DNA from: Saprospiraceae bacterium
GTDB taxonomy: Bacteria; Bacteroidota; Bacteroidia; Chitinophagales; Saprospiraceae
Assembly (NCBI GenBank): GCA_016715985.1
Contig: JADJXD010000005.1
Location: forward strand, 13,299-77,298
DNA length: 64,000 bases
Direction of reading: 5' to 3'
Shown here: piece after piece, positions 31,383 through 56,927 of the stretch
Layout of the letters: every line of letters starts with the position of its first letter
How positions within the stretch are numbered: the first letter of the stretch is position 1
Translations under genes and position numbers: made by a program
The notes under the pieces: model-generated
What the model saw: only the letters and a program-made list of their open reading frames with translations
Database searches by the model: none
What the model was told of the DNA's origin: nothing

Positions 31383-31462
31383 TGCTAAATCGGTTTTGGT
31401 TACTAAATAAAGACCTGTAAATATAATGTAATTTTCCTAATATGTACCGTATTTTAACATAT

Positions 31463-32722
31463 TTATGCAGTCCAAAATTTCCGCTTTTGGGTTTTAACCT
31501 TCCGTGGGTTCACTCCCTTATTCAAAACAGCATGCCTGTTAAAGTAAGTCATTGCATCTAAAATATGGTTATCCTTATCAATAGGAACGTTTTTATCAAA
31601 TAACCCTGCCCTGTTTTTGTAGATGTAATTTCCCAGCTCATAAATGAAATTCTTTGATCCCTGCACTACCTCTATGCCAAGCTGGTTGTTGAGTTCAATG
31701 CCCTGCTTTACTGATCCGGGTGGCTTGTCTGCCGGAATAATGTTCCAGCCTTTTTTTGCCAGCCAGTCAATAGCGTCAAGGTTTGAGCTATCCGCGATGA
31801 TCGGATCGCTTTTGCCGACTCCAAACTGCGGTAACATTTCATCCAGCGAATAGGCGTTTATCCCGGTTTCGTAAATGAGTTCCTGACCCACAAACTTTAA
31901 ACTTCCTTTCCTGTTGCCACATCGAAGTAACACCAAAGGATCATTTGCAAAACCCCAATCTATTGAATAGCCAAAATTTGACAAGTCCTTGATGTCAGGA
32001 AAACGGTCTATGACTGTCCATTCCTGATACACCATCCCCTCAACTATGCCTGTGAGTCCAAGTCCGTACACCCTCCATTTGTTCTCCCAATAACTTGAAC
32101 CGGTTTGCTTCCATTTATGCCAGTAACCCTTGATCTGTTGCCGGGTTTTTTCCGGACAAAATTCGTTATCCAAAAAAGTGGAAACGAAACCTTTTGCCCG
32201 TTTATCGCTTAAGACTTCCGTATGCACCCAAAATTTTGCTGTTGGGTTATAGTCGATGTATGTGCGCTTTTTTGTCCGTTGTTCAATTTCAAAATAAATC
32301 TCGTAGGGAATGCCGTTTGCCTCGTTAAAGAATGAGTAATCCCGTTTACCGTTCTTGGCATCCTGAGCCGAGTCAAAGGAAACAAACTCAATGAGCGATC
32401 CGTTTTTAAACTCGTATGGCCCTTCCTTAGCCTTTGGGTTGGTTAGAAAGAGTCTGAACGCTGGATTGTTCGCTATTAGATTTCGGAAGTCTCTGAGTGC
32501 CCCACGTTTCAAATTGGGCATATCCTGCCCAACGATGGTAATTTGACTGCCCGGTTCAAAGACCGCTATGCTTCCAAGTTCTTGAAGGATTGAAACTGTC
32601 TTACTGCTTGAAGTGCCGCCCTGTGCGACAATGATTTCGTATTCTCTTAAACTTCTTAAGATGTGGAAAACAGATGTAACTGTTTCCCATAAAACTAACC
32701 TGTCATAATTGGCCCCATTCAC
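31463..32722 (-). CDS. terminase large subunit
   Basis: Walker A-like AQGGTSSSKT, followed by FFNEANG, IDYNPT and DNHILDAMTY, as in PBSX/Terminase_3-type TerL. Confidence 0.8.
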   Translation of the reverse strand: MNGANYDRLVLWETVTSVFHILRSLREYEIIVAQGGTSSSKTVSILQELGSIAVFEPGSQITIVGQDMPNLKRGALRDFRNLIANNPAFRLFLTNPKAKEGPYEFKNGSLIEFVSFDSAQDAKNGKRDYSFFNEANGIPYEIYFEIEQRTKKRTYIDYNPTAKFWVHTEVLSDKRAKGFVSTFLDNEFCPEKTRQQIKGYWHKWKQTGSSYWENKWRVYGLGLTGIVEGMVYQEWTVIDRFPDIKDLSNFGYSIDWGFANDPLVLLRCGNRKGSLKFVGQELIYETGINAYSLDEMLPQFGVGKSDPIIADSSNLDAIDWLAKKGWNIIPADKPPGSVKQGIELNNQLGIEVVQGSKNFIYELGNYIYKNRAGLFDKNVPIDKDNHILDAMTYFNRHAVLNKGVNPRKVKTQKRKFWTA

Positions 32723-33216
32723 TCAATTGGTTTTATGGTTGGGGTGGATGATGGGAGCTGCTTTGTGGCCTCATAGATATTGCCATTCTTAGCCAGCTCT
32801 ATAAGTTCACCAGTTACGTTTATGTTTTGATTGGTTGGGGCGTTCCATCCGAAGAACTCGGCTGCTTGTTTGCCTGCCTGTAACTTATCCCTAAATGATG
32901 GATATTTGCCGTTGGTGTCAGGTTCGCCATCCCAAATTTGCTTTAACCCTGCGATGTAGTCCATTTGGGAAAATAGTTCGGCCATTCTTTCCCTCTCGGC
33001 TGGTCGTGTTTCCTTTCTGAATGCTTGGTCGTGGAGTTTGTCTATTTCAGTCCTAACAGCTTCGTAATGAGTGTCATAAGTCAGTTTGGCTAATTTTATA
33101 CCCTGTTCGGCTAATATCTTTCTTTGTCCTACTTTAGATTGATAGTCAGGGTTTGTTCTGTTATCATAAAGTATTCGGGCTAATTGCTTTATATCTATCT
33201 TGGTAGCGACTGCCAT
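32719..33216 (-). CDS. terminase small subunit candidate
   Basis: 165 aa with a 4-nt overlap with terL. It is the first gene behind a strong promoter-like box. Confidence 0.45.
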   Translation of the reverse strand: MAVATKIDIKQLARILYDNRTNPDYQSKVGQRKILAEQGIKLAKLTYDTHYEAVRTEIDKLHDQAFRKETRPAERERMAELFSQMDYIAGLKQIWDGEPDTNGKYPSFRDKLQAGKQAAEFFGWNAPTNQNINVTGELIELAKNGNIYEATKQLPSSTPTIKPIE

Positions 33217-33223
33217 ATTTTAG

Positions 33224-33252
33224 CAAATATACAATTTATTCTAATATGTTCC
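33224..33252 (-). promoter_or_regulatory. Bacteroidota-type promoter candidate
   Basis: Minus strand: GGAACATATTAGAATAAATTGTATATTTG. The TAnnTTTG -7 box ends 8 nt before the ATG. Confidence 0.5.
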
Positions 33253-33340
33253 ACGTGGAACGGTTATATTATTGGGGTAACTATATACTTATTCATCCTG
33301 AACCATATTTCTTCACTTCAAAGGCGATGTTGTTTTTTTT

Positions 33341-34186
33341 TTAAAACGCCTCACAACTCTCTGCACATCCGTCAATCTTCTCCCTTTTAGCCATCTTAAC
33401 TATCTCGTGTATCGGCATTGATGATAAAATCAAAATGTCTTTTGGTGAAAGATTACCACGGTAAAAGTTAAACGGTGGGTTTAAATCCGTATTTCGAGGA
33501 TTAAAATAACCATATTTATCAGTCATTGATTGCCACCACTCGAAAGATTTAGGGTTCCGTACCATATTCCTACACAATCTTAAAATATCTTTCTTCCAAC
33601 AATTTATGCAATTTCCTTCGTCTCCGTGTATATTTAAATCGAAATCTTGAGCACCCCACCACGAACTGATAAAACTTTTATCAACGGGATTCAAATCAAT
33701 CAAAGGATACAAGATTTTGTCTTTTTTGTGGCTTGCACTTTTCCTGCCCTCTTCGTCTTTTCTAATACCAATTGCAACATGATAACCTGCCCAACCAAGT
33801 TTTCTTGCAAATGCTTTAATTGTTCTTTGTTTCAATATTGTAGAACAGAACGGGGTATTTGTAGAAGGGATACCAACTTTTGAAATCATTTCTTCAAAAG
33901 GTTCCCCTTTCCGTGAAGCGGTGTTATAAGAAACAATTTTTGGGTTAACCCGCCACCCTTTTTCAGAACCAGCTCTATATTCCACCCAAAAAATAGGAAT
34001 GTTCCATTCAAGCGAACACTCATCTATGAAAAGCAAAGTGCCCTCTGCTTCCAATCCCGTATTTGCAAATACAACTTTTATGTCCCACTCTTGTCTTTCT
34101 TCCCACTCATTGAATAACCACCATAGCATATAAGCGGACGTTCTGCCTCCGCTAAATGAAACTAATAATTGTTTCTTTTTACTCAT
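33341..34186 (-). CDS. PP-loop ATP pyrophosphatase / PAPS-reductase-like protein
   Basis: [11 protein letters not shown] (a variant of the SGGxDS PP-loop), CxxC (NCINCW) and a C-terminal GCAESCEAF cysteine cluster. Confidence 0.65.
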
Positions 34187-34206
34187 TTCCCACCTTTTTA
34201 GTACTT

Positions 34207-34214
34207 CAAATATA
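34207..34214 (-). promoter_or_regulatory. -7 box TATATTTG inside the cassette
   Basis: Lies 20 nt upstream of the ATG at 34186. Confidence 0.4.
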
Positions 34215-34249
34215 AGTCATTTTCGCTTTAAAAACAAATATGTTTTGAT

Positions 34250-34981
34250 TTATTTTACCCTATATTTGTTAAATATTTTAACAGGATGAATAAGTATATA
34301 GTTACCATATTTTTTTCTTACATCTGCAATTGCTTTTTGTTCGTCTCCTTCGTGTCGAGCAAGGCAATTCCAATAAAGCTGTCCTGTTTCCCAATCTTCA
34401 ATCATCATATTACTCTCTTTTCCTTGATTGTCGATTATTTTAAACTTGAATTTGTAAGGTAGTTTCTGAACAACCTCAAATTTACCTTCTTGATTAGTTT
34501 CAAATAAATTGAGTTGGTTCAACTTAGCTAATTTGTCTTTGTCCCATTCTCTTTCAACTGGCTCTGCGTAGAAATCCAAAATCTCTGTTGGTTTAAATAC
34601 TGCCAATGATGTGCAAATATTTTTGTCCTTGGCTTCTGCTATCAATTCAGTTAGGTTGTAATAAATTTTCCCTAAGCAGATTTTCTTGCGTTCTTCCCAA
34701 TTACTTTTGGTGTCAATGTGTCCAACTACATTTATCTCTGTGTCAATACTTTTAGGTCGATAACTTTCAGGACGGAAATCGCTTGTGTTTTTTACCAAAT
34801 CAACTTCAATCCAATCATATTTTTTGTATTGTTCGTTATATGACTTTTTTCGGAACGGAACAGGGTAAAGACGTATCCAAGTCCCATCTTCACGAAACCC
34901 TGCTGTGCAAACCAATTCATCATATTTTGCCGAAAGTGTTGGATAAGTCTTTACAGTAATGAGAACTTTTGTTAGTGCCAT
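34250..34981 (-). CDS. uncharacterised 243-aa protein; its last 18 codons lie inside the inverted-repeat cassette
   Basis: Starts with MALTKVLITVKTYPTLSAKYDELVCTAGF. Its ATG lies 2 nt after the stop of the reconstructed DUF488 gene. The right inverted repeat encodes GNYILIHP. Confidence 0.5.
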   Translation of the reverse strand: MALTKVLITVKTYPTLSAKYDELVCTAGFREDGTWIRLYPVPFRKKSYNEQYKKYDWIEVDLVKNTSDFRPESYRPKSIDTEINVVGHIDTKSNWEERKKICLGKIYYNLTELIAEAKDKNICTSLAVFKPTEILDFYAEPVEREWDKDKLAKLNQLNLFETNQEGKFEVVQKLPYKFKFKIIDNQGKESNMMIEDWETGQLYWNCLARHEGDEQKAIADVRKKYGNYILIHPVKIFNKYRVK

Positions 34982-35114
34982 TTTTAAATATGTTTTACTT
35001 CATAGTCAAATGCAGGAAGTTTTTCTATGGCTTCTGCTAAATGTTTACGATGGCACTGGCAAATATTAGCTTCAAAACAAGTTAGGGCAATACGCTTGTG
35101 TTCTTTCAATAAAT

Positions 35115-35867
35115 CTAATATGTGTAATTGTGAATTGGTTGTTTTGGATAGATTGTTTTTACGGTAAATGGAAAAAGTTTATCGTAATCGCTTTGTGTAT
35201 TTAATTCTTGTCTTTGTTCTGATTGTATGCCAACTTCAGGAATATGAACATACTGTATGCCTAAGCTTCCGCAATATTTTTTTAACTGACTTTTGCTAAA
35301 GCCAAATTTCATACTTAATGGATTGTTCCGTACATCAACCAAAACTTTAACATCATTTTTAAGCAAACGAACCAAATATTCTTCCAACGAAATACCTTCA
35401 TAACCAATAGTAAAAAGCACGGTCTTATTTGCTCTTGGTTTGGACTTGTTTACTTTTTCCAACTCCTCTTTTGTTAAGATGTTTTCGGCAGCTTCACTCT
35501 TGATGGCGTAAAAAGGGAAATTCAAGTAAGTGTGTTTCATTAAAGCCGTTGCACTCAATTTGCCATAATGAGTTTTTACTTCCTGCAATAGTTTCAAGTC
35601 GGCAGGTTTTAGTTGTTTCAGGTAATCGGTTGAGTCTTTTTTTGTAAAGGACTTTTCATCTTCTGTTAAAAATCCTCTTGTTACCATTGCGGTCATATCT
35701 GCATTTGCAGAATAAGAGTAACAACCGAAGCGATAGGGAATAAAATCGTATTCACTTTTTACCTGTCTTTGGGTAAAAAAGAAAAGTAGTTTCTGTAAAC
35801 GAATTTTATCTAATTGTCCGTCAAACAGTTGCAGTATTGCGAGTATTATTTTTCTTCGGTAAAACAC
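35115..35867 (-). CDS. winged-helix (YwgA/Panacea-like) N-domain fused to a DUF488 domain; 3' end frameshifted
   Basis: DUF488-like TIGYEG.SLEEY...DVRNNP.S.KFGFSK. The conserved C-terminus (RIALTCFEANICQCHRKHLAEAI..) reads in another frame down to the stop at 34984-34986. The switch is at the A5 run at 35172-35176. Confidence 0.55.
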   Translation of the reverse strand: MFYRRKIILAILQLFDGQLDKIRLQKLLFFFTQRQVKSEYDFIPYRFGCYSYSANADMTAMVTRGFLTEDEKSFTKKDSTDYLKQLKPADLKLLQEVKTHYGKLSATALMKHTYLNFPFYAIKSEAAENILTKEELEKVNKSKPRANKTVLFTIGYEGISLEEYLVRLLKNDVKVLVDVRNNPLSMKFGFSKSQLKKYCGSLGIQYVHIPEVGIQSEQRQELNTQSDYDKLFPFTVKTIYPKQPIHNYTY

Positions 35868-35961
35868 TGTGCAAAGTTAAGAATATTAAATTATTGATTG
35901 TATTTAATTGAGCTTTTTCCTTTAACCTAAAATTGTTAATAGCGGACTTGTTTATTTTCCT

Positions 35962-36792
35962 TTAAACATTTCGCTTATTAAATATCCAATTAGTAAACGC
36001 CCCTACTGCCAAAGCGGCATTAACAATTTCATCTGTATTCGATTTATTTCCGTTGGCTAAATACTCATTATACTGATTTTGAGAAATTTTTCCATTTCTG
36101 TATAAGATAAGCATATACTCGTCTTTTTCTTGCTTTGTGGCAAGTCCTGCTCTAAGTCTGTCACCTAAGTAGGAAAGTCTTTGAAAGTCTAATAGGTTCT
36201 TTTGTGAAAAGTATGTTGGTCGTGGCTCTGCAGCAATGGCTAAATCTTCTTGTTTTACTTCAATTGTTTTTGGCTGCAATGCTTCTTTTAATGCCGTTTG
36301 GTAAAGCAAGGTTGTATATTCCTGATTGACTTTTACGCTTGTTTCCAATTCATCACACAAATTCATTAATTCCTCTATTTTGGAAACTATGCGTTTTTGT
36401 TCTGATAATGGTGGAAATGCAATGAAAAATTCGACTAAATCTCTTTGATATAAATGGGGTGTTGTTGCCCCCATAATTCTAGAATTAACTATTTTCTGAA
36501 AATGCTCGCTTAATAAATAATAATAAAGGAATTTTAATTGAACTTGCTTTGATGGTCGAATTAGAAGTAAAGATGAGTTTATTGTAGCGGGCTCCTGCAA
36601 ATCTTTAATTATTCCAAGTTTTCCTATACCCGCACCATCCTTACATATCAAAATATCACCATTTCTAAGCATTATCTCAGGACTCTCGTCATATCTCTCT
36701 TTTGAAATATGATAAGCCTGTGAATAATCAACGTAATCTCCATAGTTAAGTGAATAAACGGATAAAAAAGTGGGCCATTTTTTTGTATTCAC
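35962..36792 (-). CDS. hsdS: Type I R-M specificity subunit HsdS, C-terminal fragment
   Basis: Conserved region LSEQKRIVSKIEELMNLCDELE. Joins the upstream fragment if the T7 run (36778-36784) is shortened by one base. Confidence 0.8.
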   Translation of the reverse strand: MNTKKWPTFLSVYSLNYGDYVDYSQAYHISKERYDESPEIMLRNGDILICKDGAGIGKLGIIKDLQEPATINSSLLLIRPSKQVQLKFLYYYLLSEHFQKIVNSRIMGATTPHLYQRDLVEFFIAFPPLSEQKRIVSKIEELMNLCDELETSVKVNQEYTTLLYQTALKEALQPKTIEVKQEDLAIAAEPRPTYFSQKNLLDFQRLSYLGDRLRAGLATKQEKDEYMLILYRNGKISQNQYNEYLANGNKSNTDEIVNAALAVGAFTNWIFNKRNV

Positions 36793-37474
36793 TTGCTGTC
36801 AGTCCTTTCCAACCAATTCTACCATTCAATTCTGCAATTTCTCCAAGTCTGCACCAAGACCAGTTTGAAGGAGTTTTAAATGGAACATCAGCCAAATTTA
36901 TTTTGGGTAATGCTTTCTCTTTTTTGCCTGATTTTGCCTTCTCTACTTTTATCTTTTCAAGAAGTTTTGATGCTGGTTCGTCTTTTGGGTTTTGGGGAAC
37001 TAATTTACCTTGCATTGCATCTTTCAAAATCTGCTGTCGCAGTTTTTTGATTAACTCTAACTGGTGTGATTGTTCATTTATTAATTCATCCTTATATGAA
37101 TTACCCACTATGAACTTTGATTTAACTTCAAGTTGTTGTTTAATGTCAAAATATGGCAGACGATAATTTCCAAAAGACTTTAATCCAATTGCTTCTTTTG
37201 ATGTTCCTGCTTTAGTGTTTCTTACAATATCATCTTTCAAAACATTGAAAATAATATGATAAAATTGCAAGTCAATTGGATATTTCTCTTCATTCTTTGG
37301 GGTAAGAATAAAGCACAAATCGCTTGATATAAACTTGCCATTTACATAATGCGTTCTGCCTAATGAACCTGATGCAGCAGCAGCAAAAATTAATGCTTCA
37401 CAGTCATATACATATTCATTATGAGTTTTCCATTCAGAAGAAGCTGTAATGAAAGTGTATTTCCTGGTATGCAC
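36746..37474 (-). CDS. hsdS: Type I R-M specificity subunit HsdS, N-terminal and central fragment
   Basis: FITASSEWKTHNEY..ASGSLGRTHYVNGKFISSDLCFIL is a known TRD type. The true ATG at 37535 overlaps the hsdM stop and is out of frame by 1 nt near 37460-37462. Confidence 0.8.
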   Translation of the reverse strand: MHTRKYTFITASSEWKTHNEYVYDCEALIFAAAASGSLGRTHYVNGKFISSDLCFILTPKNEEKYPIDLQFYHIIFNVLKDDIVRNTKAGTSKEAIGLKSFGNYRLPYFDIKQQLEVKSKFIVGNSYKDELINEQSHQLELIKKLRQQILKDAMQGKLVPQNPKDEPASKLLEKIKVEKAKSGKKEKALPKINLADVPFKTPSNWSWCRLGEIAELNGRIGWKGLTASEYKKMAHFFIRLFT

Positions 37475-37532
37475 TTAGAACTTTGTAAAGTCCCTTTTTC
37501 AAACTGAAATAAATCTGATATTGGAACCAAAC

Positions 37533-38054
37533 TCATTTAACCGCCTGTTTTAATTGGTTCAACAAGTTATTGCTTTTAGCAAAACTCTTATCTAAAAGTT
37601 GCATCAATTCCTGTGTGTTGTTTTCGTGTTCTTCCTCTTGTTTGGTGGGGTTCTTAATATCCAAATCATAATTACGCTCAATAATGGTTTTGATATTTAC
37701 TTTCCAAGCTACCTCACTTTCTTTGCGTTTGTTCCACCATTTTTTAATCGGTTCAAGCTCTTTTATTTGAATTGGTTTAGTTTTGCTATATGCCTTTTGT
37801 CCTACAGGTAAACGATGTTCATAATACCAAATGTCTTTAGTAGATTTTCCTTTTTCAAAAAACAATAAGTTGGTTGCAACCGTTGCATAAGGTTGAAAAA
37901 CTGAATTTGGCAACCTAATAATCGTGTGTAGATTGCAATCTTTTAATAATTTCTCCCTAATTCTTTGTTTTACACCTTCACCTGTTAAACTCCCATCAGG
38001 TAAAACAATTCCTGCTCGTCCTTCATTTTTCAAAAGATGAATCATCAAAATCAA
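37533..38054 (-). CDS. hsdM: Type I R-M methyltransferase HsdM, C-terminal fragment
   Basis: LKNEGRAGIVLPDGSL.GEGV...IREKLL..CNLHTIIRLP. In frame with the upstream fragment if one base is added to the A4 run at 38053-38056. Confidence 0.85.
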   Translation of the reverse strand: MILMIHLLKNEGRAGIVLPDGSLTGEGVKQRIREKLLKDCNLHTIIRLPNSVFQPYATVATNLLFFEKGKSTKDIWYYEHRLPVGQKAYSKTKPIQIKELEPIKKWWNKRKESEVAWKVNIKTIIERNYDLDIKNPTKQEEEHENNTQELMQLLDKSFAKSNNLLNQLKQAVK

Positions 38055-38956
38055 AAGAGGTCTGCACTTTCTTTAGTTCGGAAGCTTTGAGGAAAATTGT
38101 TTTCGTTGTTATTGGCTACTATTCCCCCAAATGGCGGATTTGCCAATATTACATTTACACGGTGCTTCTCAGTAAAGTTGCTCAAAGGTTGGTCTAAAGC
38201 ATCACCAAATCGAATATTCGGCACTTCAATATCGTGCAAAATCAAATTGGTAGTTGCCAACAAATAGGGAAGTGGTTTATACTCCCAACCAATAATATTT
38301 TCTTCAATGGATTTTCTTTCTTTAACTGAATTAGCTTGCTTCTTCAAGTGTTCAATGGCACAAGTCAAGTAGCCACCCGTGCCGCAGGCAGGGTCCAATA
38401 TTTTCTCGCCAATTTGGGGGTTGATAATATCGGTAATGAATTGTGTAATGGCTCGTGGCGTGTAGAACTCTCCACTTTTACCTGCACTTTGCAATTCTTT
38501 TAATATATTTTCGTAAAGCTCACCAAAAGAATGGCGGTCTTTGGCAACATTAAAATCTAGCTCATTTAACTTGTTCAATACCTTTCGGATATTGATTCCG
38601 CTTTTCATATAGTTGTGATTGCCCTCAAAAACCTCACGAACAATTAAAGCCCTTCGGTTTCCCGTGCTTACATCCACATTTCTCAATGCAGGAAACAGTT
38701 CTCGGTCAACGAACTCTAACAATTCATCACCTGTCATTCCTTCATCATCACCTGCCCAAGCATCCCAATGAAATTTTGAAGGAATCGGAGATTTGTATTT
38801 GTCATCTAAGATTTCAAGTTCCTTGTCTTTGTCTGAAAATATTTTTAAAAATAGCATCCACCCCAATTGTTCAATGCGTTGTGCATCACCGTTCAATCCG
38901 GTGTCCTGCCACATTATTTTTCTTATGCTATCTATTATGCCTGATATATTTCCCAT
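38051..38956 (-). CDS. hsdM: Type I R-M methyltransferase HsdM, N-terminal fragment
   Basis: GEFYTPR, DPACGTGGYL and NPPFGG motifs. Confidence 0.9.
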   Translation of the reverse strand: MGNISGIIDSIRKIMWQDTGLNGDAQRIEQLGWMLFLKIFSDKDKELEILDDKYKSPIPSKFHWDAWAGDDEGMTGDELLEFVDRELFPALRNVDVSTGNRRALIVREVFEGNHNYMKSGINIRKVLNKLNELDFNVAKDRHSFGELYENILKELQSAGKSGEFYTPRAITQFITDIINPQIGEKILDPACGTGGYLTCAIEHLKKQANSVKERKSIEENIIGWEYKPLPYLLATTNLILHDIEVPNIRFGDALDQPLSNFTEKHRVNVILANPPFGGIVANNNENNFPQSFRTKESADLF

Positions 38957-38963
38957 TTATCTG

Positions 38964-39329
38964 TTACGCTATTTTATACAGTTCTTTTTCTAATTCTTTC
39001 ACGGCTTCAAGGTATTTTTCCTTGCTGCCAAACTCATTGATAATTTCGATCGGTGAACCGAAATCAGTAAGCGGCTTTACTTTTAAAACTTCAATGCTTT
39101 CAATGTTTGTAATGCCTTCGTCTGCATACTTGTCAAGTAGGGTTTCTAAAACTTTTACACCGGGAAAGCATTTCTTAACCCGTTGGATGTGGTTGTATCT
39201 GTCCTCGGGTTCCCCGCAAATTAAAACTCTGTCAATTTGTGGATGTCCTTTTACTTCACATGGGATGCACTCGGTTTTATGGCATCCGAAAGCGGAGAGG
39301 ATTAAAAAACAAATCAATAGCTTTTTCAT
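38964..39329 (-). CDS. chimeric ORF: lipoprotein-like signal peptide fused to an HsdR C-terminal-domain remnant
   Basis: N-terminus MKKLLICFLILSAFGC. The C-terminus VLETLLDKYADEGI..IE..VLKVKP...FGSP.EII.EFGSKEKYLEAVKELEKELY resembles the EcoEI-type HsdR C-terminal domain. No helicase or nuclease part is present. Confidence 0.5.
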   Translation of the reverse strand: MKKLLICFLILSAFGCHKTECIPCEVKGHPQIDRVLICGEPEDRYNHIQRVKKCFPGVKVLETLLDKYADEGITNIESIEVLKVKPLTDFGSPIEIINEFGSKEKYLEAVKELEKELYKIA

Positions 39330-39339
39330 GTTTTACTTT

Positions 39340-39669
39340 TTAAAAAGGCATTTCATCATCATGGGTTACTTTGATTGGTTGCATTTGGTTTTGACCTTGT
39401 GTTTTTTTGTAGTTCGGATCAGGAACAAAATCATCCACCTTTACCGAGTGGGTTCTGTATTCCGTTTGGTTTTCCGGTTTAAGTGGAAAAATTACAAGGT
39501 CAATGCTTTTGTGTTCGTTTCCGTTTTTGTCCTTCCATGTTTTGATCTTGTCCTTTGCCTGTCCTTTGGTAAACTCCCAAAGAGCTGTTAAGTCAATTTG
39601 CAATTTGATTCCGTTGTTTCCAATTGTTCGGCCATTGCCGACATACATTTCTTTTTTTTCAGTACTCAT
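39340..39669 (-). CDS. single-stranded DNA-binding protein candidate
   Basis: 109 aa ending in the acidic tip HDDEMPF (SSB consensus DDD.PF). Adjacent to the replication module. Confidence 0.5.
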   Translation of the reverse strand: MSTEKKEMYVGNGRTIGNNGIKLQIDLTALWEFTKGQAKDKIKTWKDKNGNEHKSIDLVIFPLKPENQTEYRTHSVKVDDFVPDPNYKKTQGQNQMQPIKVTHDDEMPF

Positions 39670-39670
39670 T

Positions 39671-39793
39671 TTATTGAATTAGTTTAGTGATTGCGTTTGT
39701 TACCATAATTGAAAATCCAATTACCACGATGTACAAAATGATCCCTTGAATTTTTCCGGGTTGTGAATCGTCGTGTTCGTATCTATTTTTCAT
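39671..39793 (-). CDS. 40-aa single-TM peptide (not in the ORF track)
   Basis: ATG at 39793 and stop 1 nt before the SSB ATG. Hydrophobic core IILYIVVIGFSIMV. Confidence 0.3.
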   Translation of the reverse strand: MKNRYEHDDSQPGKIQGIILYIVVIGFSIMVTNAITKLIQ

Positions 39794-39872
39794 TGCTTTT
39801 AAAATTGTGGGGCAGCCTCAAACCGCCCCGAAGTTTTGGTTATTAATTTGCTTTTGCCATTTTTTACTTTTC

Positions 39873-39908
39873 AAAAACCAGCCGGGCAAATGAATAAATC
39901 CCGGCTGG
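39873..39908 (-). terminator. rho-independent terminator downstream of the tRNA
   Basis: Minus strand: CCAGCCGGG-N13-CCCGGCUGG (9-bp stem) followed by U5. Confidence 0.7.
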
Positions 39909-39935
39909 AACTCATCAAAATTCAAAACAAATGTG

Positions 39936-40008
39936 TGGCAGGGGCAGGACTCGAACCTGCGCACATCCGGTTATGAGCCGGACAATCTACCAACTGATAT
40001 ACCCTGCT
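39936..40008 (-). tRNA. tRNA with CAU anticodon (Met, or Ile2 if lysidine-modified)
   Basis: The cloverleaf folds by hand. It has U8, A14, G18G19, A21, an anticodon stem UCCGG/CCGGA with loop CUCAUAA, and a T arm GCAGG-UUCGAGU-CCUGC. There is an A1.C72 mismatch and no encoded CCA. Confidence 0.8.
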
Positions 40009-40067
40009 ATAAAACTCCCTACTTTAAGGGAGTGAAACACTTACTAAAACCTGAGCTTATGCATATA

Positions 40068-40096
40068 CAAATATAATTTAATTTTTCTAATTTGTT
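40068..40096 (-). promoter_or_regulatory. promoter candidate driving the tRNA
   Basis: Minus strand: AACAAATTAGAAAAATTAAATTATATTTG, with the -7 box about 60 nt upstream of the tRNA 5' end. Confidence 0.45.
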
Positions 40097-40110
40097 TCTG
40101 CCAAAAAGTG

Positions 40111-40326
40111 TTAAATGCTGCACTTTTTTTCAACACATTCAATCTTTATGCTTCCTATCCGCTTGGCCATTAAGTTGATCCCGGCCTTGATATACATCTT
40201 GGTTTCAGGACTCATTTCCCTTTCGACTTCAATTTCTAAACAAAGTTCCTTTCTTAGTTCTTCTATTTGATTTTCCATTTGGTTCAATTTATTTGCTTGT
40301 TTATTCTTGTTTTTGCTTGCATTCAA
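40111..40326 (-). CDS. small coiled-coil protein, unknown function
   Basis: 71-aa ORF flanked by a 14-bp direct repeat (40045-40058 and 40331-40344). Confidence 0.4.
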   Translation of the reverse strand: MNASKNKNKQANKLNQMENQIEELRKELCLEIEVEREMSPETKMYIKAGINLMAKRIGSIKIECVEKKCSI

Positions 40327-40397
40327 CTTTTAAAACCTGAGCTTTCCCATCGTTATGGGAGTAATTCAGGTAATTCTGATGTAAGGCTTAAAATACC

Positions 40398-41213
40398 CTA
40401 CACATACGTGTTTCTTTTGCTCTTTCCATAAATTTCAACAACGTGGAACATTTCTTTGAATCGGTCAATACTCCGGCCATCCATGTATGAAAACAGGGTC
40501 AATGGTTTAGATTCATCATCCAGCACAATGTTTGAACTTATGAACGTGAACAACCCTTTTGATTTCCATAGTTCGTATCGGTTTTGGATGATCTCATTCA
40601 TTGAGTATTTATAGTCTCCATAATGCGAGACTTGGTTTATCTTCTCGGTCATGTCATCCAAAAACAAATGACTTTCATTGGCATAAGTTAGGTCAACTTC
40701 GTGGCCGTTGATCTTCTTTGAAATGTCCCTTGTCATGGATGACCACAGGACTATGCCGGGGTTTTTGATAACGTTAAACGAAATGTGCGCTGATTGAATC
40801 GCTGCCCGTAAAAGCGTTGTTTTACCTATTCCGGGGCTTGACCAAAAATAAAGGCCGCCTTTGCCATTTAATGTTTCGTTGGGTAGGTCAAAAATGAAGT
40901 CGATAATTAGTTTACAAGCATCCGCATAGGATTGATCCTGTTTGATTTGCTCGGCTATCTCTGCCCCTGATTTCCCGATAACCGAAACTAAGTACTTCCA
41001 AAAAACTTGTTTTGCCTCGCTTTCCATGTACATTTTTTTGACTGGATGATCCGGCATTGAATTTACCTTTTCCCAATATTCTTTGGATTTTTCGGTTACC
41101 GGAAGCGGTGCGAATTGCTCCTCGGTGCGCTTTCTCCACTTAGCATTGTAGGCATCAATTTGAGCCTGGGTTACTTGGGCGGAGACTTGTACGGTCGTTT
41201 GGTCGGTTGTCAT
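40398..41213 (-). CDS. AAA+ ATPase, DnaC/IstB-like helicase loader candidate
   Basis: Walker A SSPGIGKTT and Walker B HLFLDDMTE. Overlaps the upstream replication-associated ORF. Confidence 0.55.
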   Translation of the reverse strand: MTTDQTTVQVSAQVTQAQIDAYNAKWRKRTEEQFAPLPVTEKSKEYWEKVNSMPDHPVKKMYMESEAKQVFWKYLVSVIGKSGAEIAEQIKQDQSYADACKLIIDFIFDLPNETLNGKGGLYFWSSPGIGKTTLLRAAIQSAHISFNVIKNPGIVLWSSMTRDISKKINGHEVDLTYANESHLFLDDMTEKINQVSHYGDYKYSMNEIIQNRYELWKSKGLFTFISSNIVLDDESKPLTLFSYMDGRSIDRFKEMFHVVEIYGKSKRNTYV

Positions 41214-41464
41214 GCCTGTGCTGTTTTTGGGATCATTCCTAATCTTTCCATTCCTTTGCGGTTATGTTCGTCTGCGATATCCAAGACCCCGGAGTTAATT
41301 CGTAAGTGGTCTTGGCTGGTTCCGTTTTGGAACTTGCCTGTTTTTTTGTCGGTAAGGTTTCGCATAATCCAGCCACGTGCTGATGCTTTCCAATCCTTCA
41401 TTTTGTTTTTGCCGACTTTCCATCCGTTGGATTCGTAGAAAGCGAAAAATCTTCCAGCTTCCAT
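41210..41464 (-). CDS. C-terminal part of a replisome-organiser/DnaD-like protein
   Basis: The motif FYESNGWKVGKNKMKDWKASARGW is common at the C-terminus of phage replication organisers. The frame stays open upstream to about 41550 (..KPTENETIKFFKNQNSTE) with no ATG. Confidence 0.45.
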   Translation of the reverse strand: MEAGRFFAFYESNGWKVGKNKMKDWKASARGWIMRNLTDKKTGKFQNGTSQDHLRINSGVLDIADEHNRKGMERLGMIPKTAQA

Positions 41465-41570
41465 TTCGGTCGAGTTTTGATTTTTGAAAAATTTAATGGT
41501 TTCGTTTTCCGTTGGTTTTTGAAAATTTTTTCCTCTCTTAATTCTTTTATCATTTTCATATTCAATTACA

Positions 41571-41596
41571 TTTTCTTATCTTTTCTTATCCTTATC
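41571..41596. repeat. short tandem repeat TTTTCTTATC x2.6 (iteron-like)
   Basis: Read directly from the sequence. Lies in the ORF-poor 41465-42213 region next to the replication genes. Confidence 0.5.
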
Positions 41597-42173
41597 TTAG
41601 TGTTTGCTCCATCTTCTTTTTGAGTGTTTGTTTGAGCCAAATTGTTATAAATGTTGTTTATTTTATAGCATTTTTCAAGCCTTTTTTCGTTTTCGCCTAA
41701 ATTTTCAAAATTACAATGCACTTATCATTCTTTTGCAAAAGTTCATCCGCATGGAATGCAAATAACACCCTCGGCAAAAACCAATTTCGATGATTCTAGG
41801 GTAAACATCCACTGGCATATTCTTGCACTTTAAATTAAAATTTTAATTGGTTGCCTTTTGTGGTCATTTGCTTTACAAATTGAGGTAAACATGACCTGGT
41901 TTATGCCTCAAAATTAAGTCTGATTGCATTTAGCTATTGCGAACATTCAAGCAATTTTTTCGTTTGGCATGTCAAAAAATCCTTCGGCCAAATTTCGGCG
42001 TATGGATAAACCTCTTAGCCATTGTTAATAAAAAAAGCCACCCACAAGGACATCGAGGAAGCCTGCAAAACAGAGGCATCATGCGGCCTTTTGTTTCCGA
42101 TTGAATGGCCTCAGAATGGCTTTATTTAAAAAATTCGTTTGTTCTATTATCACAGTGATGTATTTTGGCACTA

Positions 42174-42203
42174 CAAATATATATTTATTTCTAATATATT
42201 CAC
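42174..42203 (-). promoter_or_regulatory. promoter candidate firing into the ORF-poor region
   Basis: Minus strand: GTGAATATATTAGAAATAAATATATATTTG, with a TAnnTTTG -7 box. Confidence 0.45.
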
Positions 42204-42213
42204 CTTTTATGTT

Positions 42214-42450
42214 TTAAAAAGTTTTTAACATTTTTTTTCGACTATTTTCGAGCCTTGCCCGGCCTCTGGACAGCACCCAGTCTGACATCTTTATGCACTT
42301 TGTGGGGCAGTATTTCTTCCGGCCTTTGGGATGATCTGAGCGCAAACCGAATTGATCTGCATACTTTTTAAAGGTGTTTATTGACACCCCCACCAAGTTG
42401 GATGCATCGGCCAATGTCAAAGGTTCGGTTAATAGTTTTGCAAGGGTCAT
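42214..42450 (-). CDS. small HTH-like DNA-binding protein
   Basis: 78 aa. The segment LTLADASNLVGVSINTFKKYADQFGL resembles a helix-turn-helix. Confidence 0.4.
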   Translation of the reverse strand: MTLAKLLTEPLTLADASNLVGVSINTFKKYADQFGLRSDHPKGRKKYCPTKCIKMSDWVLSRGRARLENSRKKMLKTF

Positions 42451-42875
42451 TTAGCTTTTATTATTCTGAGTTCTGCGCCCGGATCAATTTCGTTAATAAG
42501 TGCGGTTAATAGCTTCCATTTTATTTGCCATAACGGCAATTCTAAGCCCTTGACTTCGATATAAATTCGCTGTCCGTGTTTGTCGGTTGCGATAAAATCA
42601 ATGTAGTAATTGGCAATAAATACGCCATTGACCCTCAAAGGAATTTTAACTTGCCTTTCCCATTTTAATATATCTCCTGACTTAATTTGCCAGTCTAAAT
42701 CTTGAGCGACTTTTGCTTCAAGTTTGGAATCGTATTTCTTCTCTCCATATTCAGTTGAAACATTTTTATACTTCGATTTTGTTCTAAATGCTTTTAATCC
42801 CATTTGTCTATAAGATGATGCCGGAACCTTTGTAGCTCCTTCAATTGGTTTTAGCTTTGGGTCTGGTTTAAACAT
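42447..42875 (-). CDS. DUF1064-like PD-(D/E)XK nuclease (phage resolvase-like)
   Basis: YDSKLEAKVAQDL...YYIDFIATDKHGQRIYIEVKG matches the DUF1064 pattern (YDSK.E, D..EVKG). Confidence 0.55.
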   Translation of the reverse strand: MFKPDPKLKPIEGATKVPASSYRQMGLKAFRTKSKYKNVSTEYGEKKYDSKLEAKVAQDLDWQIKSGDILKWERQVKIPLRVNGVFIANYYIDFIATDKHGQRIYIEVKGLELPLWQIKWKLLTALINEIDPGAELRIIKAK

Positions 42876-43011
42876 TCGTTATTGTTTTATAAAATATTGC
42901 GTATGTTTTTATCGCTAATTAAATCCATTTGGTGGGATAAACGATAGTTTGTAGCGTGTATAAATGAGTTATAGGCAATAGGGCAGACGTTCTTCGTTTC
43001 AACATTTGTGG

Positions 43012-43031
43012 AAGAAAAAAAAGAAAAAAAG
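43012..43031. repeat. left arm of a 20-bp perfect inverted repeat (AAGA8GA7G) flanking the methyltransferase gene
   Basis: Reverse complement of 43903-43922. A further inverted pair lies at 42968-42983 and 43953-43968 (15/16 matches). Confidence 0.7.
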
Positions 43032-43043
43032 CCCACCGCACTT

Positions 43044-43898
43044 TTAAAATAATTCATTTTTATTCTGTTTACTTACCCAAATATCATTTAGCCTTTTTAC
43101 TGCTATATCATAAATCGGTTTATCTTTTTCAATTCCTATGCAATATCTATCAGTATTTATACAAGCTGCCGCAGTTGTTCCGCTTCCTATGCAATTATCT
43201 AATACCAATTCGCCCTTATTGGTATAAGTTTTTATTAGAGTTTCTATTAATAATATTGGTTTTTGTGTTGGATGTCCTAAATACTCTCTTGATATTGGTC
43301 TAATGGAATTGCATTTAATTACAGAAGATGGATTTTTTTCATCAGGAGAATACCTTTGTGCTTCAATATCTTTATAAGCAACGGATTGTTGATTCCCCGA
43401 CATTGTATTAGAAACATTAAACTTGCCACCATTTTTTATCATACTACTTACTGTTTTATCTGTTCTTGGTATCATTTGTTTATTATATGTTGGCTGTGAT
43501 TTATAAAAAACGATAATGTTTTCGTGATACTTCATTGGTCTTTTATTTGATTGCCCCATTCCTGTCGGGTTTGATTTCTCCCATATTAATTCGTACTTAA
43601 ACAAATTGATGTTACTCATAATTAAAGCACTTGTAAAAGGCTGTGAACCAAATAAAACTATTGCGCCATTTTGTTTAATTAACTTGTCGTATCGTTCCCA
43701 TAGTTTCTCAAAAGGAATTATAGTGTCCCATTTACAAGCGGTAGTCCCGTATGGTAAATCGCAAAGTATCATATCTACTTTTGTATTATCTTCAATCATC
43801 AAGTCCATTACTTCTAAGCAATCACCGTGATATAGTTGCAACTTTTCGCCACAGTAAACTGAATAGTCCAACCAAGTTTTATTATTAAAATTTTCCAT
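43044..43898 (-). CDS. DNA methyltransferase (beta-class N6-adenine / N4-cytosine)
   Basis: Motif IV CDLPYG near the N-terminus and motif I LDNCIGSGTT near the C-terminus. Confidence 0.8.
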   Translation of the reverse strand: MENFNNKTWLDYSVYCGEKLQLYHGDCLEVMDLMIEDNTKVDMILCDLPYGTTACKWDTIIPFEKLWERYDKLIKQNGAIVLFGSQPFTSALIMSNINLFKYELIWEKSNPTGMGQSNKRPMKYHENIIVFYKSQPTYNKQMIPRTDKTVSSMIKNGGKFNVSNTMSGNQQSVAYKDIEAQRYSPDEKNPSSVIKCNSIRPISREYLGHPTQKPILLIETLIKTYTNKGELVLDNCIGSGTTAAACINTDRYCIGIEKDKPIYDIAVKRLNDIWVSKQNKNELF

Positions 43899-43902
43899 CC
43901 CT

Positions 43903-43922
43903 CTTTTTTTCTTTTTTTTCTT
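43903..43922. repeat. right arm of the 20-bp perfect inverted repeat (CT7CT8CTT)
   Basis: Reverse complement of 43012-43031. On the mRNA it forms the A-rich leader directly before the ATG. Confidence 0.7.
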
Positions 43923-43950
43923 TAGTGCTTCGATTAAACATTCTGCTAAA
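43921..43950 (-). promoter_or_regulatory. conserved upstream box TTTAGCAGAATGTTTAATCGAAGCACTAAAG
   Basis: The same box, with one mismatch, occurs at 44749-44779 upstream of the second methyltransferase. Partial copies lie at 42992-43010, 44080-44097 and 45587-45600. Confidence 0.5.
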
Positions 43951-44068
43951 AATCCCTACTGCCTATAACAGCGGTTTTGTGCTATTTGCCCCATCAACAT
44001 TTGTGGTAAATTGAAGCCTTGTGCAAGGGGCAAACAGACACAAAGCCGCAAAACGTTAGCTGCAAGCA

Positions 44069-44734
44069 CTACTGACCTGCTTCGATTAAACATTGTGAAT
44101 GAAAAGTTTTTAAAATTTCCCCAGCCCGCTTTTGTTTTTTCAAAACAATAAAGTATGAATGAAACTTCCTTGCGTGGTGTTGGTTGCTGTGGTTGTGTCC
44201 AATTATCCTGTTTTTAGCAAGCAAGATGAAAAGGTCTTTGTTGTAAAAACCAATCCTTTCAGCCTCATTCATAATGTATATATGTGAAAACCATTGTTTT
44301 CCACTACTTACAGTATCTTGGCATTTAATTATCAGCGTTCCATTTGGCTCAAGTATTCTATAAAACTCTTCCAAACATTCTGAATACCATTTCCAAAGGT
44401 CTTGTATATACCTAAATCCGTGAAACCTTTCGCCAATAATGCCAGAAGGCTTTTGTTTTGTATGTCCTACCACGAATGGCGGGTCAAACATTATTGATGA
44501 AATGCTATTGTCCAAGTGTGGTAAATCATTTGCGTTTGCCTGTAAAGTATCGTCTGTTTGCGGAAACAAATCAAACTTTTCTAAAGGCTCATCAATGCCA
44601 GCTTTGTTGTAAAAATTACCCTTAGAATATGTCGGGTCTAATTCAATGCCTTGTGGGCAATGAAGTTTTACTATGTCACGTATAATTTCGTGTTGGTCAT
44701 AGTTTATTGTTGATATTACTTTTCCTTCGCTCAT
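44069..44734 (-). CDS. DNA methyltransferase (DPPF motif)
   Basis: The SIMFDPPF catalytic motif and ELDPTYSKG. 221 aa. Confidence 0.65.
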   Translation of the reverse strand: MSEGKVISTINYDQHEIIRDIVKLHCPQGIELDPTYSKGNFYNKAGIDEPLEKFDLFPQTDDTLQANANDLPHLDNSISSIMFDPPFVVGHTKQKPSGIIGERFHGFRYIQDLWKWYSECLEEFYRILEPNGTLIIKCQDTVSSGKQWFSHIYIMNEAERIGFYNKDLFILLAKNRIIGHNHSNQHHARKFHSYFIVLKKQKRAGEILKTFHSQCLIEAGQ

Positions 44735-44748
44735 TTTAAAAACTTTTC

Positions 44749-44779
44749 TTTAGTGCTTCGATTCAACATTCTGCTAAAT
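44749..44779 (-). promoter_or_regulatory. second copy of the conserved upstream box
   Basis: Minus strand: TTTAGCAGAATGTTGAATCGAAGCACTAAAG, 14 nt before the ATG at 44734. Confidence 0.5.
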
Positions 44780-44865
44780 TTACCGTGCCAGCAGCTAACA
44801 CGGGCTAAAACGGCATTAAAACGACCGTTTAGCCCCATCCGTTATATGCTATGCTGTGCGACACC

Positions 44866-46163: not shown

Positions 46164-46556
46164 TCAATTCTCAAACAATCCACCACCCAAATGCTTAGAT
46201 TTATAATCTTCCAATCCTTTAGCGGCGTGGAGCATTGCGTCGGCTCTTTGCTTTAAAGAATTTATTTGGCTACCAACATCGCTTAAATCAGTTGAACAAT
46301 AATAGCCTGATGAAGTCGCAATTAACGGGAGTATGCCATGACTTCTGATATGGTTTACTAATTTCCTCAATCGTGGTTCGCTGAGTTTTTTTGTTAGGCC
46401 ATATTTTGCATAGTCCTGATTTATGAATCTCACCACTTCAGGGGTTTTGATCGGATTATCTTTTGTCCGATTTCTGAAACCACGTACTAAAACATTTACA
46501 AGTCGCTGTTCTTCGTCAGTAAGTGGCTTGGTTATTTGCTCGAATGTTTCGATCAT
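46164..46556 (-). CDS. hypothetical protein
   Basis: 130-aa ORF with a 4-nt overlap with the upstream gene. Confidence 0.4.
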   Translation of the reverse strand: MIETFEQITKPLTDEEQRLVNVLVRGFRNRTKDNPIKTPEVVRFINQDYAKYGLTKKLSEPRLRKLVNHIRSHGILPLIATSSGYYCSTDLSDVGSQINSLKQRADAMLHAAKGLEDYKSKHLGGGLFEN

Positions 46557-47122
46557 ATAATTGTCTCTTGAAGTTGTTTGCAGATTAAAATGTACTGATG
46601 GTATTCTTTTATCTGCGCCGGTGTGTAATTGTTTTCTTCACCTGTTTTCTGAAATTCATTTTCCCATTCTGCAATTGATTTTTTAATACATCCAATTTGA
46701 ATTTCATTAGTTGCATACCAGTTTACAGAATGTCGAGAACCAATTAGAAATAGTGTTTTAAAAATCGATGCCCCGTTTCCAATCGATGCCCTGTTTCCAA
46801 TCGATGCCCTGTTTCCAATCGATGCCCCGTCTCCAATCGATGCCCCGTCTCCAATCGATGCCCTGTTTCCAATCGATGCCCCGTCTCCAATCGATGCCCT
46901 GTTTCCAATCGATGCCCCGTCTCCAATCGATGCCCCGTCTCCAATCGATGCCCTGTTTCCAATCGATGCCCCGTCTCCAATCGATGCCCCGTCTCCAATC
47001 GATGCCCCGTCTCCAATCGAAATGAGTCTTTTTTCTAATTCAGATTTTAAATCGCTCAAATTTTCGTATTCAAAATTAATTTTGTTGTAGTTTTCATCGA
47101 GTAGGTAAATTGCTTTTTTCAT
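46553..47122 (-). CDS. hexapeptide-repeat (left-handed beta-helix-like) protein
   Basis: 14 consecutive IG[DN][GR]AS hexapeptides, encoded by a perfect 18-bp tandem array. Confidence 0.55.
   Translation of the reverse strand: MKKAIYLLDENYNKINFEYENLSDLKSELEKRLISIGDGASIGDGASIGDGASIGNRASIGDGASIGDGASIGNRASIGDGASIGNRASIGDGASIGDGASIGNRASIGNRASIGNGASIFKTLFLIGSRHSVNWYATNEIQIGCIKKSIAEWENEFQKTGEENNYTPAQIKEYHQYILICKQLQETII
46764..47022. repeat. 18-bp tandem repeat x14.4 (ATCGATGCCC[CT]GT[CT]TCCA)
   Basis: 14 complete units of three sequence types (8 A, 5 B, 1 C hybrid). Open in all frames on both strands. Confidence 0.95.
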
Positions 47123-55061: not shown

Positions 55062-55064
55062 TAC

Positions 55065-55939: not shown

Positions 55940-55959
55940 ATAGGTCTGTTTTTTGAAGT

Positions 55960-55990
55960 AAAAAAACAGGGCAAGGCGTTACCCCTGCCC
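55960..55990 (-). terminator. rho-independent terminator (copy 2)
   Basis: Same stem and U7 tract as at 1500-1530, with one loop substitution. Confidence 0.6.
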
Positions 55991-56005
55991 CGTGTCATAA
56001 TTTAC

Positions 56006-56407: not shown

Positions 56408-56523
56408 GATTAAAAATACTTTTTCATAGTTCTTAAATATTTAAGGTGAATAAAAAACAGTTTTAAAAACAGGGCAAATTTGACCTAAGCCGCCTTTGCC
56501 CCATTGCTGATATGAAACACAAC

Positions 56524-56916: not shown

Positions 56917-56927
56917 ATAGTTGTTAT

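Follow-up and report, generated by a model that had tools for sequence, protein, structure and literature searches.

A 1031-bp element with perfect 25-bp inverted repeats, here called W1, was analysed within a 64,000-nt stretch of DNA from a Saprospiraceae bacterium (assembly GCA_016715985.1, contig JADJXD010000005.1; 'the window' refers to this whole stretch). W1 is very probably a non-autonomous mobile insertion cassette (MIC) of an IS1595 lineage, carrying a single passenger gene and inserted into a phage gene. Its repeats constitute the ends (terminal inverted repeats, TIRs) of a transposon lineage in the IS1595 family, since the same ends bound IS1595 transposase genes elsewhere, whilst W1 itself lacks the transposase, with zinc ribbon and ISXO2-like domain, that characterizes an autonomous member. 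This identification of W1 as a transposon derivative was absent from the initial annotation of the sequence.

Structure of W1 and of its autonomous relative

The sequence at 33276–33300 (GGTAACTATATACTTATTCATCCTG) is the exact reverse complement of 34282–34306. Four copies of its 18-nt core lie in the window, at 33276 and 52442 on the forward strand and at 34289 and 53021 on the reverse strand (the last with three mismatches); 0.09 matches were expected in a shuffled window, none of 100 shuffles reached four, and a relaxed 12-mer scan revealed no further copies in the window. The only long open reading frame (ORF) of W1 (33341–34186, minus strand, 281 aa) is intact and makes up 82 % of the element, and the box caaatata at 34207–34214 reads TATATTTG on the coding strand. 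The left and right TIRs do not differ from each other, and both represent a rare variant with the ending CATCCTG, which among the loci collected in this work (designated by L numbers) was found elsewhere only in L145, L100 and L059. The initial annotation had reported the perfect repeats, the core shared with a second element at 52442 to give four copies, the single gene with its −7 box, the PP-loop/PAPS-reductase-like character of that gene and the lack of a target-site duplication. All of this was recovered on re-derivation from the sequence, the gene matching phrog_424 at 3.6e-44 and Pfam weakly, and the flanks reading ATTATTGG on the left and ATATTTTT on the right.

An autonomous relative was reconstructed from L145 and L100, which overlap with 99.96 % identity over 2261 bp and together form a 2924-bp element with the duplication ATAATTTA. 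Its TIRs are identical to those of W1 at 25/25 and 24/25 positions, and it carries genes for a 339-aa IS1595 transposase, an 85-aa accessory ORF, a 250-aa ORF and a 186-aa methylase-like ORF. The 95-nt leader of W1, which runs from the right TIR to the ATG of the passenger (cargo) gene (34187–34281), aligns with the L145 leader between TIR and transposase gene, with 67 % identity beyond the TIR, a value reached by none of 300 shuffles. W1 and a cognate autonomous insertion sequence (IS) thus have in common both the TIRs and the region that adjoins one of them. The alignment spans TTTG at 34235–34238 as well as the box at 34207–34214, the two being 20 nt apart. A −33/−7 promoter consensus is known for Bacteroidota, and by comparison with it the boxes probably form a promoter of that type. 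The initial annotation had credited the cassette with its own promoter; because the leaders align, this promoter, whose activity is putative, can be described more sharply as the transposase leader of the element, behind which the PP-loop gene appears to sit in the transposase's place.

Transposition of the terminal-repeat family

Family loci were gathered by exact match to the 18-mer, with partner copies accepted at up to four mismatches. The exact 18-mer was present in 22 viral-contig stretches of IMG/VR, on whose predictions the 'viral' status of the family contigs rests, in 28 genome stretches of GTDB, mostly from Bacteroidota [Kordia, Tenacibaculum, Brumimicrobium and metagenome-assembled genomes (MAGs) of Chitinophagales], and in at least 120 metagenome stretches. 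The copies mostly form inward-facing pairs 0.25–6.4 kb apart, neighbouring copies being oriented +/− in 63 cases, −/+ in eight, −/− in four and +/+ in two. The TIR consensus from 114 distinct ends was GGTAACTATATACTTATTYACCCT; positions 20–24 (ACCCT), which lie outside the search pattern, were still 58–90 % conserved, and conservation dropped abruptly at position 1, beyond which the flanks were merely AT-rich. Fourteen pairs enclose a protein of the transposase cluster (197–356 aa). DDE_Tnp_IS1595 was detected by Pfam in 13 of these (best E value 1e-47) and Zn_ribbon_IS1595 in 11, and the three transposases tested against NCBIfam transpos_IS1595 scored 200–208 bits (cutoff 75). Pairs without a transposase usually hold one gene, encoding a DNA methylase, a PP-loop enzyme, TnpB or a small unknown ORF.

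Transposition of sibling cassettes was evident from their flanks and from filled and empty sites. An 8-bp AT-rich target-site duplication has been reported for the IS1595 family (PMC12561309), and an 8-bp flanking duplication was perfect in 31 of 60 unique TIR pairs and matched at 7/8 positions in four more. A transposase-less, 604-bp methylase-like cassette is present in both L022 and L167 (98.8 % identity), with homology ending at the TIR tips, unrelated flanks and different duplications (ATTATTTT and TATTTTTT, respectively). An all-against-all search within the collected loci identified the empty partner of another: in L150 a transposase-less 732-bp C5-methylase cassette lies between two copies of TAAATAAA, and the corresponding, 90 %-identical phage region of L083 has the site once (TAGATAAA) and no element. 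The reconstructed empty sites of L017a and L006 had no exact match in IMG/VR. The occurrence of the same cassette at different sites suggests that a cognate transposase mobilizes such cassettes in trans. In L091, the element and right flank are those of L121 (99.9 % identity), the left end and flank differ and there is no duplication.

Two other features were seen among members of the family. In eight of the 14 autonomous elements, the transposase gene is adjoined, or overlapped at its end, by a conserved ORF of 74–85 aa (e.g. L002 1577–1813 and L145 1759–2013); the sole family match of this ORF was a weak one to DUF5053, and it may encode an accessory DNA-binding protein of the IS1595 lineage. 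At L046 304–558, on a Candidatus Peribacteria MAG contig, a TIR pair of only 255 bp, the size of a miniature inverted-repeat transposable element (MITE), contains no ORF of ≥70 aa and has the perfect duplication TAAGAAAT.

Insertion site, second cassette and passenger genes

The right repeat of W1 starts on a codon boundary of a 243-aa ORF (34250–34981) and encodes its residues GNYILIHP, and joining 34307 to 33275 gives the ending ..KKY-PII*, all as set out in the initial annotation. Three homologues of this ORF (L023–L025, 50–65 % identity) match residues 1–225 only, and the match to the phrog_25907 profile also stops at residue 225. The two homologues whose ORFs were read (L024 and L025) are 273 aa long and continue with 48 further, unrelated residues (FDDFAKTKDLYLFLGTTRVHH... 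in L025), which are not encoded anywhere in the window; the ending GNYILIHPVKIFNKYRVK, which might have been natural to all homologues, was thus not theirs. Since the matches to homologues and profile alike end at residue 225, the right TIR is a true insertion junction in the AT-rich target AAAAATAT (coding strand), and the target gene was disrupted. The genes for DUF488 and the 273-aa phrog_25907 protein are adjacent and in the same order in the window (34250–35867), L024 and L025, the latter two being otherwise unrelated, and seem to form an accessory module of two genes that travel together.

At the left junction, terS starts 59 bp past the end of W1, with no remnant of an interrupted gene between them, and the flank has GG at positions −1 and −2, where only five and four of the 114 family flanks are alike. 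The GG flank, the missing duplication and the missing gene remnant together indicate that the left duplication copy was lost in a second event, along with at least ~150 bp. An adjacent deletion is favoured, the alternative being an exchange between two element copies; products of both types are exemplified by L091 and by L196 (see below). Exact-protein look-ups found no identical cargo or terS protein on record, and the terS relatives, with only 40 % identity, were without the W1 locus. A perfect 14-bp palindrome, GTTCCACGTGGAAC (33248–33261), lies just upstream of terS and is kept in L196 (at ~11500). A 21-mer from the left junction matched only L056, an unrelated phage contig, in which the palindrome and ~10 flanking nt (6029–6049) lie between tape-measure-like and tail genes and the TIR-like stretch is coding. 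The palindrome may be a regulator-binding site.

From these comparisons we infer an order of events as well as the activity of the promoter and the role of the cargo. W1 would descend from an autonomous element of the L145/L100 type (TIR, leader with promoter, transposase, 85-aa ORF, passengers, TIR), the interior of which would have given way to the PP-loop gene. An IS1595 DDE transposase acting in trans, supplied by an autonomous element either of the Bacteroidota host or of a co-infecting phage, would have moved it into AAAAATAT near the 3′ end of a gene of the 273-aa type, cutting off 48 codons and fusing 18 element codons to the remainder. A later event at the left end would then have removed the duplication copy together with what was left of the gene, so that the left TIR came to adjoin the terS promoter.

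The second cassette of the window, W2, is a simple insertion of the same lineage with its perfect 8-bp duplication TAAAAAGA, absent from the initial annotation, intact. Its 121-aa ORF is intact and had no match in Pfam, PHROG or NCBIfam. The 3113-bp contig L197, both ends of which coincide exactly with TIRs, encodes an identical protein in its first gene and carries in addition genes for a 305-aa IS1595 transposase, a BglII-like endonuclease and an MT-A70 methylase. The first 405 bp of W2 are 100 % identical to L197 and the last 184 bp 75 % identical, and W2 is a deletion derivative of an L197-like element of 3.1 kb.

A second haplotype of the region was found in L196 (GCA_016715905.1, JADJXI010000010.1), an 11.8-kb MAG contig with 92–97 % identity to the window (32967–44844). 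It carries a 690-bp version of W2, from which that of the window differs by the loss of 93 bp between two copies of GACAAAGC. In L196 the 4.9 kb corresponding to window 34239–39146, with the right TIR of W1, the 243-aa ORF, the DUF488 gene and the HsdS/HsdM pieces, are replaced by 360 bp of unrelated sequence and a W2 copy without duplication. The replacement starts inside W1, with the W2 copy at the breakpoint, and the tip of the left W1 TIR and the next ~14 nt are substituted. As the breakpoints fall at W1 and W2, the two cassettes mark structural variation within one phage population.

The 281-aa cargo protein of W1 has the PP-loop motif SFSGGRTS and, besides the phrog_424 ('PAPS reductase') match, weak matches to PAPS_reduct/PP-loop families in Pfam; NCBIfam gave only sub-threshold PP-loop matches and PDB no sequence match. 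Its homologues number at least 1909, hardly any of them named, and Cys114, 193, 196, 274 and 278 were invariant among 45 aligned sequences. An AlphaFold2 (AF2) model (pLDDT 91) found APS/PAPS reductase, LarE and TtuA as the best Foldseek matches at TM scores of 0.4–0.5, a predicted likeness at the superfamily level only. Among the matches listed, the closest relatives (59–72 % identity) are without TIRs and lie in tight operons or replication modules, in L177 and L182 immediately after a large ORF that by visual inspection appears to encode a DnaB-like helicase, which indicates that the cargo is a captured resident phage gene. The initial annotation had proposed a search for the PP-loop gene elsewhere with the same ends; in L017b, a gene 52 % identical to the W1 cargo lies between them, flanked by the perfect duplication ATACAAAA. 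More distant PAPS-reductase-like cargo genes are present in L012, L002 and L108.

Pfam matches of the family cargo were to C5 methylases (six), N6_N4 methylases (five), D12 methylases (three) and TnpB (three); other cargo comprised MT-A70, Dam, two clusters of small DPPY/NPPY proteins, RadC, RhuM, one Acb2/Tad1-hairpin match and many small unknown ORFs. A nuclease is paired with a methylase in L197 1–3113 (BglII-like plus MT-A70) and in L061 7573–9979 [PD-(D/E)XK plus N6 methylase], which suggests that the methylase-only phage cassettes derive from transposons carrying restriction–modification systems. By association with the methylase cargo of its siblings, we would guess that the W1 cargo modifies nucleic acid to the benefit of the phage (counter-restriction). 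The literature found on the function of phage PAPS reductases settles nothing in this respect. A full-length TnpB gene was the only one between IS1595-type TIRs at L084 1189–2444, L164 277–1549 and L169 5053–6381, with scores of 411 bits for IS200_TnpB (curated cutoff 425) and 346 bits for guided_TnpB (cutoff 100). The L084 cassette has the perfect 8-bp duplication TTAATGAA. A gene for an RNA-guided nuclease is here the cargo of a DDE transposon cassette.

Table 1. Coordinates of the two cassettes and of the features at their junctions (positions in the window)
Feature	Position	Strand	Basis
W1, complete transposase-less IS1595-family cassette	33276–34306	−	Perfect 25-bp TIRs; same ends bound transposase-encoding elements elsewhere
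W1 left TIR, 3′ side of cargo	33276–33300	+	Fits consensus GGTAACTATATACTTATTYACCCT; sharp conservation edge at position 1; 24/25 to L100 end, 25/25 to L145 end
W1 right TIR, 5′ side of cargo; also codons 226–233 (GNYILIHP) of the truncated target ORF	34282–34306	−	Homology of the target ORF ends exactly here
W1 leader with putative promoter (−33 TTTG, 34235–34238; −7 TATATTTG, 34207–34214; 20-nt spacer)	34187–34281	−	Aligns with L145 leader
W1 cargo, 281-aa PP-loop/PAPS-reductase-like gene	33341–34186	−	Family matches; at least 1909 homologues; AF2 model
Target gene, phrog_25907/273-aa-type ORF truncated after residue 225	34250–34981	−	Last 18 codons and stop (34250–34306) are element sequence
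Left junction, judged secondary; upstream region of terS with palindrome GTTCCACGTGGAAC (33248–33261)	33217–33275		No duplication copy and no remnant of the last 48 target codons
W2, second transposase-less cassette, 597 bp (TIRs 52442–52469 and 53011–53038)	52442–53038	−	Family ends; duplication; identity to L197
W2 left duplication copy TAAAAAGA	52434–52441		Sequence
W2 right duplication copy TAAAAAGA	53039–53046		Sequence
W2 cargo, 121-aa ORF with ATG inside TIR	52657–53022	−	64 homologous clusters, ~105–135 aa

Elsewhere in the window, its two ends repeat each other (1–4582 and 54461–59044, a period of 54.46 kb, 97.9 % identity), with divergence to 66–87 % identity between 3853–10383 and 57568–63714 within two giant tail-fibre-like ORFs (2176 and 2048 aa). 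Two variants of a ~54.5-kb phage genome may have been joined in the assembly in concatemer-like fashion, or the fibre module may really be in tandem or duplicated. Several genes within 34984–38956 are split: DUF488 is represented by ORFs of 250 and 41 aa, as against an intact 294 aa in L025, HsdM by two ORFs (38054–38956 and 37536–38054) and an HsdS-like protein by two overlapping ORFs (35962–36792 and 36746–37474), reflecting either decay of an accessory island or long-read homopolymer errors. A 284-aa N6_N4 methylase gene (43047–43898) is enclosed by a perfect 20-nt polypurine/polypyrimidine inverted repeat (AAGAAAAAAAAGAAAAAAAG, 43012–43031 and 43903–43922), which is of low complexity and may be due to chance or be terminator-like. 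About 20 tandem copies of an 18-bp unit (46709–47068) lie inside the ORF 46553–47122, which, judging by its six-codon period, is probably the one among the 63 window ORFs that matched the hexapeptide-repeat (LbH) transferase family in Pfam.

Alternative explanations and comparison with known elements

The initial annotation had left two explanations of W1 standing side by side. One, that it was inserted later into the 243-aa ORF at its 3′ end, is borne out by the homologues, the match to which stops exactly at the repeat; the other is an invertible segment. Under the latter, a recombinase would flip the 1-kb interval as in an inverton or shufflon and so switch the cargo or the C terminus of the 243-aa ORF. 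Perfect 25-bp inverted repeats ~1 kb apart, one of them inside a coding region, and the absence of a target duplication are what such a segment would show. Yet no transposase, integrase, resolvase/invertase or other recombinase domain was detected among the 63 window ORFs (Pfam, E ≤ 0.001), the repeat occurs elsewhere with the marks of DDE transposition (8-bp duplications, IS1595 transposases and filled and empty sites), L196, the only other haplotype, shows no change in the orientation of the cargo with respect to terS, and a flip would merely put the gene antisense; we consider inversion highly improbable and have abandoned it. Equally improbable is the idea that the 24-nt sequence is a phage regulatory site (a promoter, operator or terminator module), recurring around genes like the promoter/stem-loop (PeSL) cassettes of T4-type phages, and not a transposon end. 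The motif is conserved across many phage contigs, the right copy of W1 lies upstream of the cargo and that of W2 overlaps the start of its ORF, but the copies pair inward (63 +/− against 14 others) regardless of gene orientation, the pairs are flanked by 8-bp direct duplications of otherwise unrelated DNA, homology between copies ends exactly at the outermost base, and the motif also surrounds IS1595 transposase genes in bacterial chromosomes. Two related candidates were rejected: a composite transposon, because only 25-bp ends and no complete IS copies flank the cargo, and a conserved element of the terS promoter, because L196 keeps this promoter and its palindrome and differs from the TIR tip outward.

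W1 might also have been built in place, with a resident PP-loop gene flanked by two insertions followed by internal deletions, and never have moved as a unit. This would account for the missing duplication and would suit the resident, TIR-less phage genes that are the cargo's relatives, and chimeric copies without duplication are indeed known (L091 and the W2 copy in L196). Against it, L177 and L182 keep the gene in a replication module and not beside terS, the leader of the cargo is element sequence homologous to that of L145, so that the gene is joined to the element and does not simply lie between its ends, the rare CATCCTG variant is found in both TIRs, which are identical to each other, and in L017b the same type of gene moves as a unit with a perfect duplication. 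We regard assembly in place as very unlikely, and W1 as a cassette that was inserted whole.

Several points weigh against this interpretation. The flanks of W1, ATTATTGG and ATATTTTT, match at 4/8 positions only and, with no 8-bp duplication, we infer its own insertion; 25 of the 60 TIR pairs of the family likewise have no good duplication. An empty W1 site was not seen in any allele of this phage, and L196, the one other haplotype, keeps the cargo gene. As tblastn with three family transposases gave nothing better than E=5 in the window, the mobility of W1 depends on an unseen helper. In a quick neighbour-joining tree the W1 cargo did not group with that of L017b, leaving one capture or two. 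Because loci were gathered by exact 18-mer match, the diversity of the family is undersampled, the metagenome figure is a lower bound and the conservation of positions 1–18 is partly by construction. The source of the window is probably a MAG assembled from long reads, in which small frameshifts nearby may be sequencing errors.

A MIC, as defined in PMC6199540, has two IS-type inverted repeats, no transposase, one or more passenger coding sequences (CDSs) and a length of ~0.7–3 kb. W1 fits this description with its 1031 bp, perfect 25-bp TIRs, single 281-aa CDS and lack of a transposase. MIC231 of Bacillus cereus and IS231 likewise share a conserved region next to one inverted repeat, as W1 does with its autonomous relative. 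They differ in belonging to the IS4/IS231 family and to chromosomes or plasmids of Bacillus, as opposed to IS1595 and phages of Bacteroidota for W1. The mobilization of MIC231 in trans was demonstrated experimentally (Chen et al., 1999; De Palmenaer et al., 2004; both as cited in PMC6199540), whereas that of the IS1595 cassettes is suggested by identical cassettes at different sites. MITEs are also non-autonomous, bounded by TIRs and dependent on a transposase in trans, and the present family includes the 255-bp L046, but W1 and W2 each carry a complete gene and are not short non-coding elements. The invertible promoters of Bacteroides and enterobacteria and the shufflons resemble W1 in that inverted repeats of 20–30 bp bracket a short segment; unlike them, the W1 region has no recombinase in the window, its repeats are transposon ends with duplications and a single orientation was seen in the window and L196. 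The PeSL mobile regulatory cassettes of T4-type phages, said to have been described by Arbiol and colleagues in 2010, are reportedly direct repeats that act through homologous recombination. What they have in common with the W1 family is that single accessory genes in variable phage regions have short conserved sequences on either side, which promote gene shuffling. The ends of the W1 family, by contrast, are inverted, go with a DDE transposase and generate 8-bp duplications.

The affinity to the IS1595 family itself extends to the transposases of sibling elements (IS1595 zinc ribbon and ISXO2-like DDE domain), short TIRs, 8-bp AT-rich duplications and passengers, which in the autonomous siblings include methylases, restriction–modification pairs, PAPS-reductase-like genes and RhuM. 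IS1595 members with passenger genes are on record (Siguier, Gagnevin and Chandler, 2009, as cited in PMC12561309). W1 and W2 differ in being without a transposase, W1 in lacking a duplication and the lineage in having many copies in predicted phage genomes. The lineage may already bear a name.

Cultured relatives of the phage were not found, blastn of 31400–36000 giving no match among GenBank phages. The window terL is at most 37 % identical to terminases of Bacteroidota phages, and the family transposase retrieved from GenBank phages only fragments of 40–43 % identity in unannotated fecal phage records. No description of IS1595 cassettes in phages was found in the literature, an absence that is no proof of novelty. 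Insertion sequences have been described as scarce in phage genomes, and phages have been deemed poor IS carriers (PMC3429520). Given this rarity, two cassettes of one IS1595 lineage in an apparently virulent-type Bacteroidota phage, and the recurrence of the lineage in dozens of predicted viral contigs, are noteworthy. The mechanism itself is conventional.

It is conceivable, though on balance we doubt it, that the TIR family constitutes a phage-adapted cassette-exchange system, in which IS1595 transposases of Bacteroidota chromosomes or of autonomous phage-borne copies mobilize single-gene cassettes for DNA modification or counter-defence in trans between unrelated phages. Among the cargo would be N6 and C5 methylases, PP-loop/PAPS-reductase-like enzymes and an Acb2/Tad1-like ORF, and the cassettes would have arisen from restriction–modification-carrying elements by loss of the transposase and nuclease genes. 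Such a system would be a transposon counterpart of integron cassettes for phage counter-defence, and the recurrently captured PAPS-reductase-like gene would be a DNA-modifying anti-restriction enzyme.

For annotation, the 243-aa ORF is to be treated as a truncated gene with a transposon-encoded tail and the putative promoter of the cargo as the transposon's own. Since PAPS-reductase-like genes have been captured repeatedly alongside methylases, they should not be labelled as auxiliaries of sulfur metabolism without a test. The cargo of the lineage consists mostly of DNA methylases and other modifiers of nucleic acids and, if this is upheld, transposition would be a route by which phages gain or swap counter-restriction genes.

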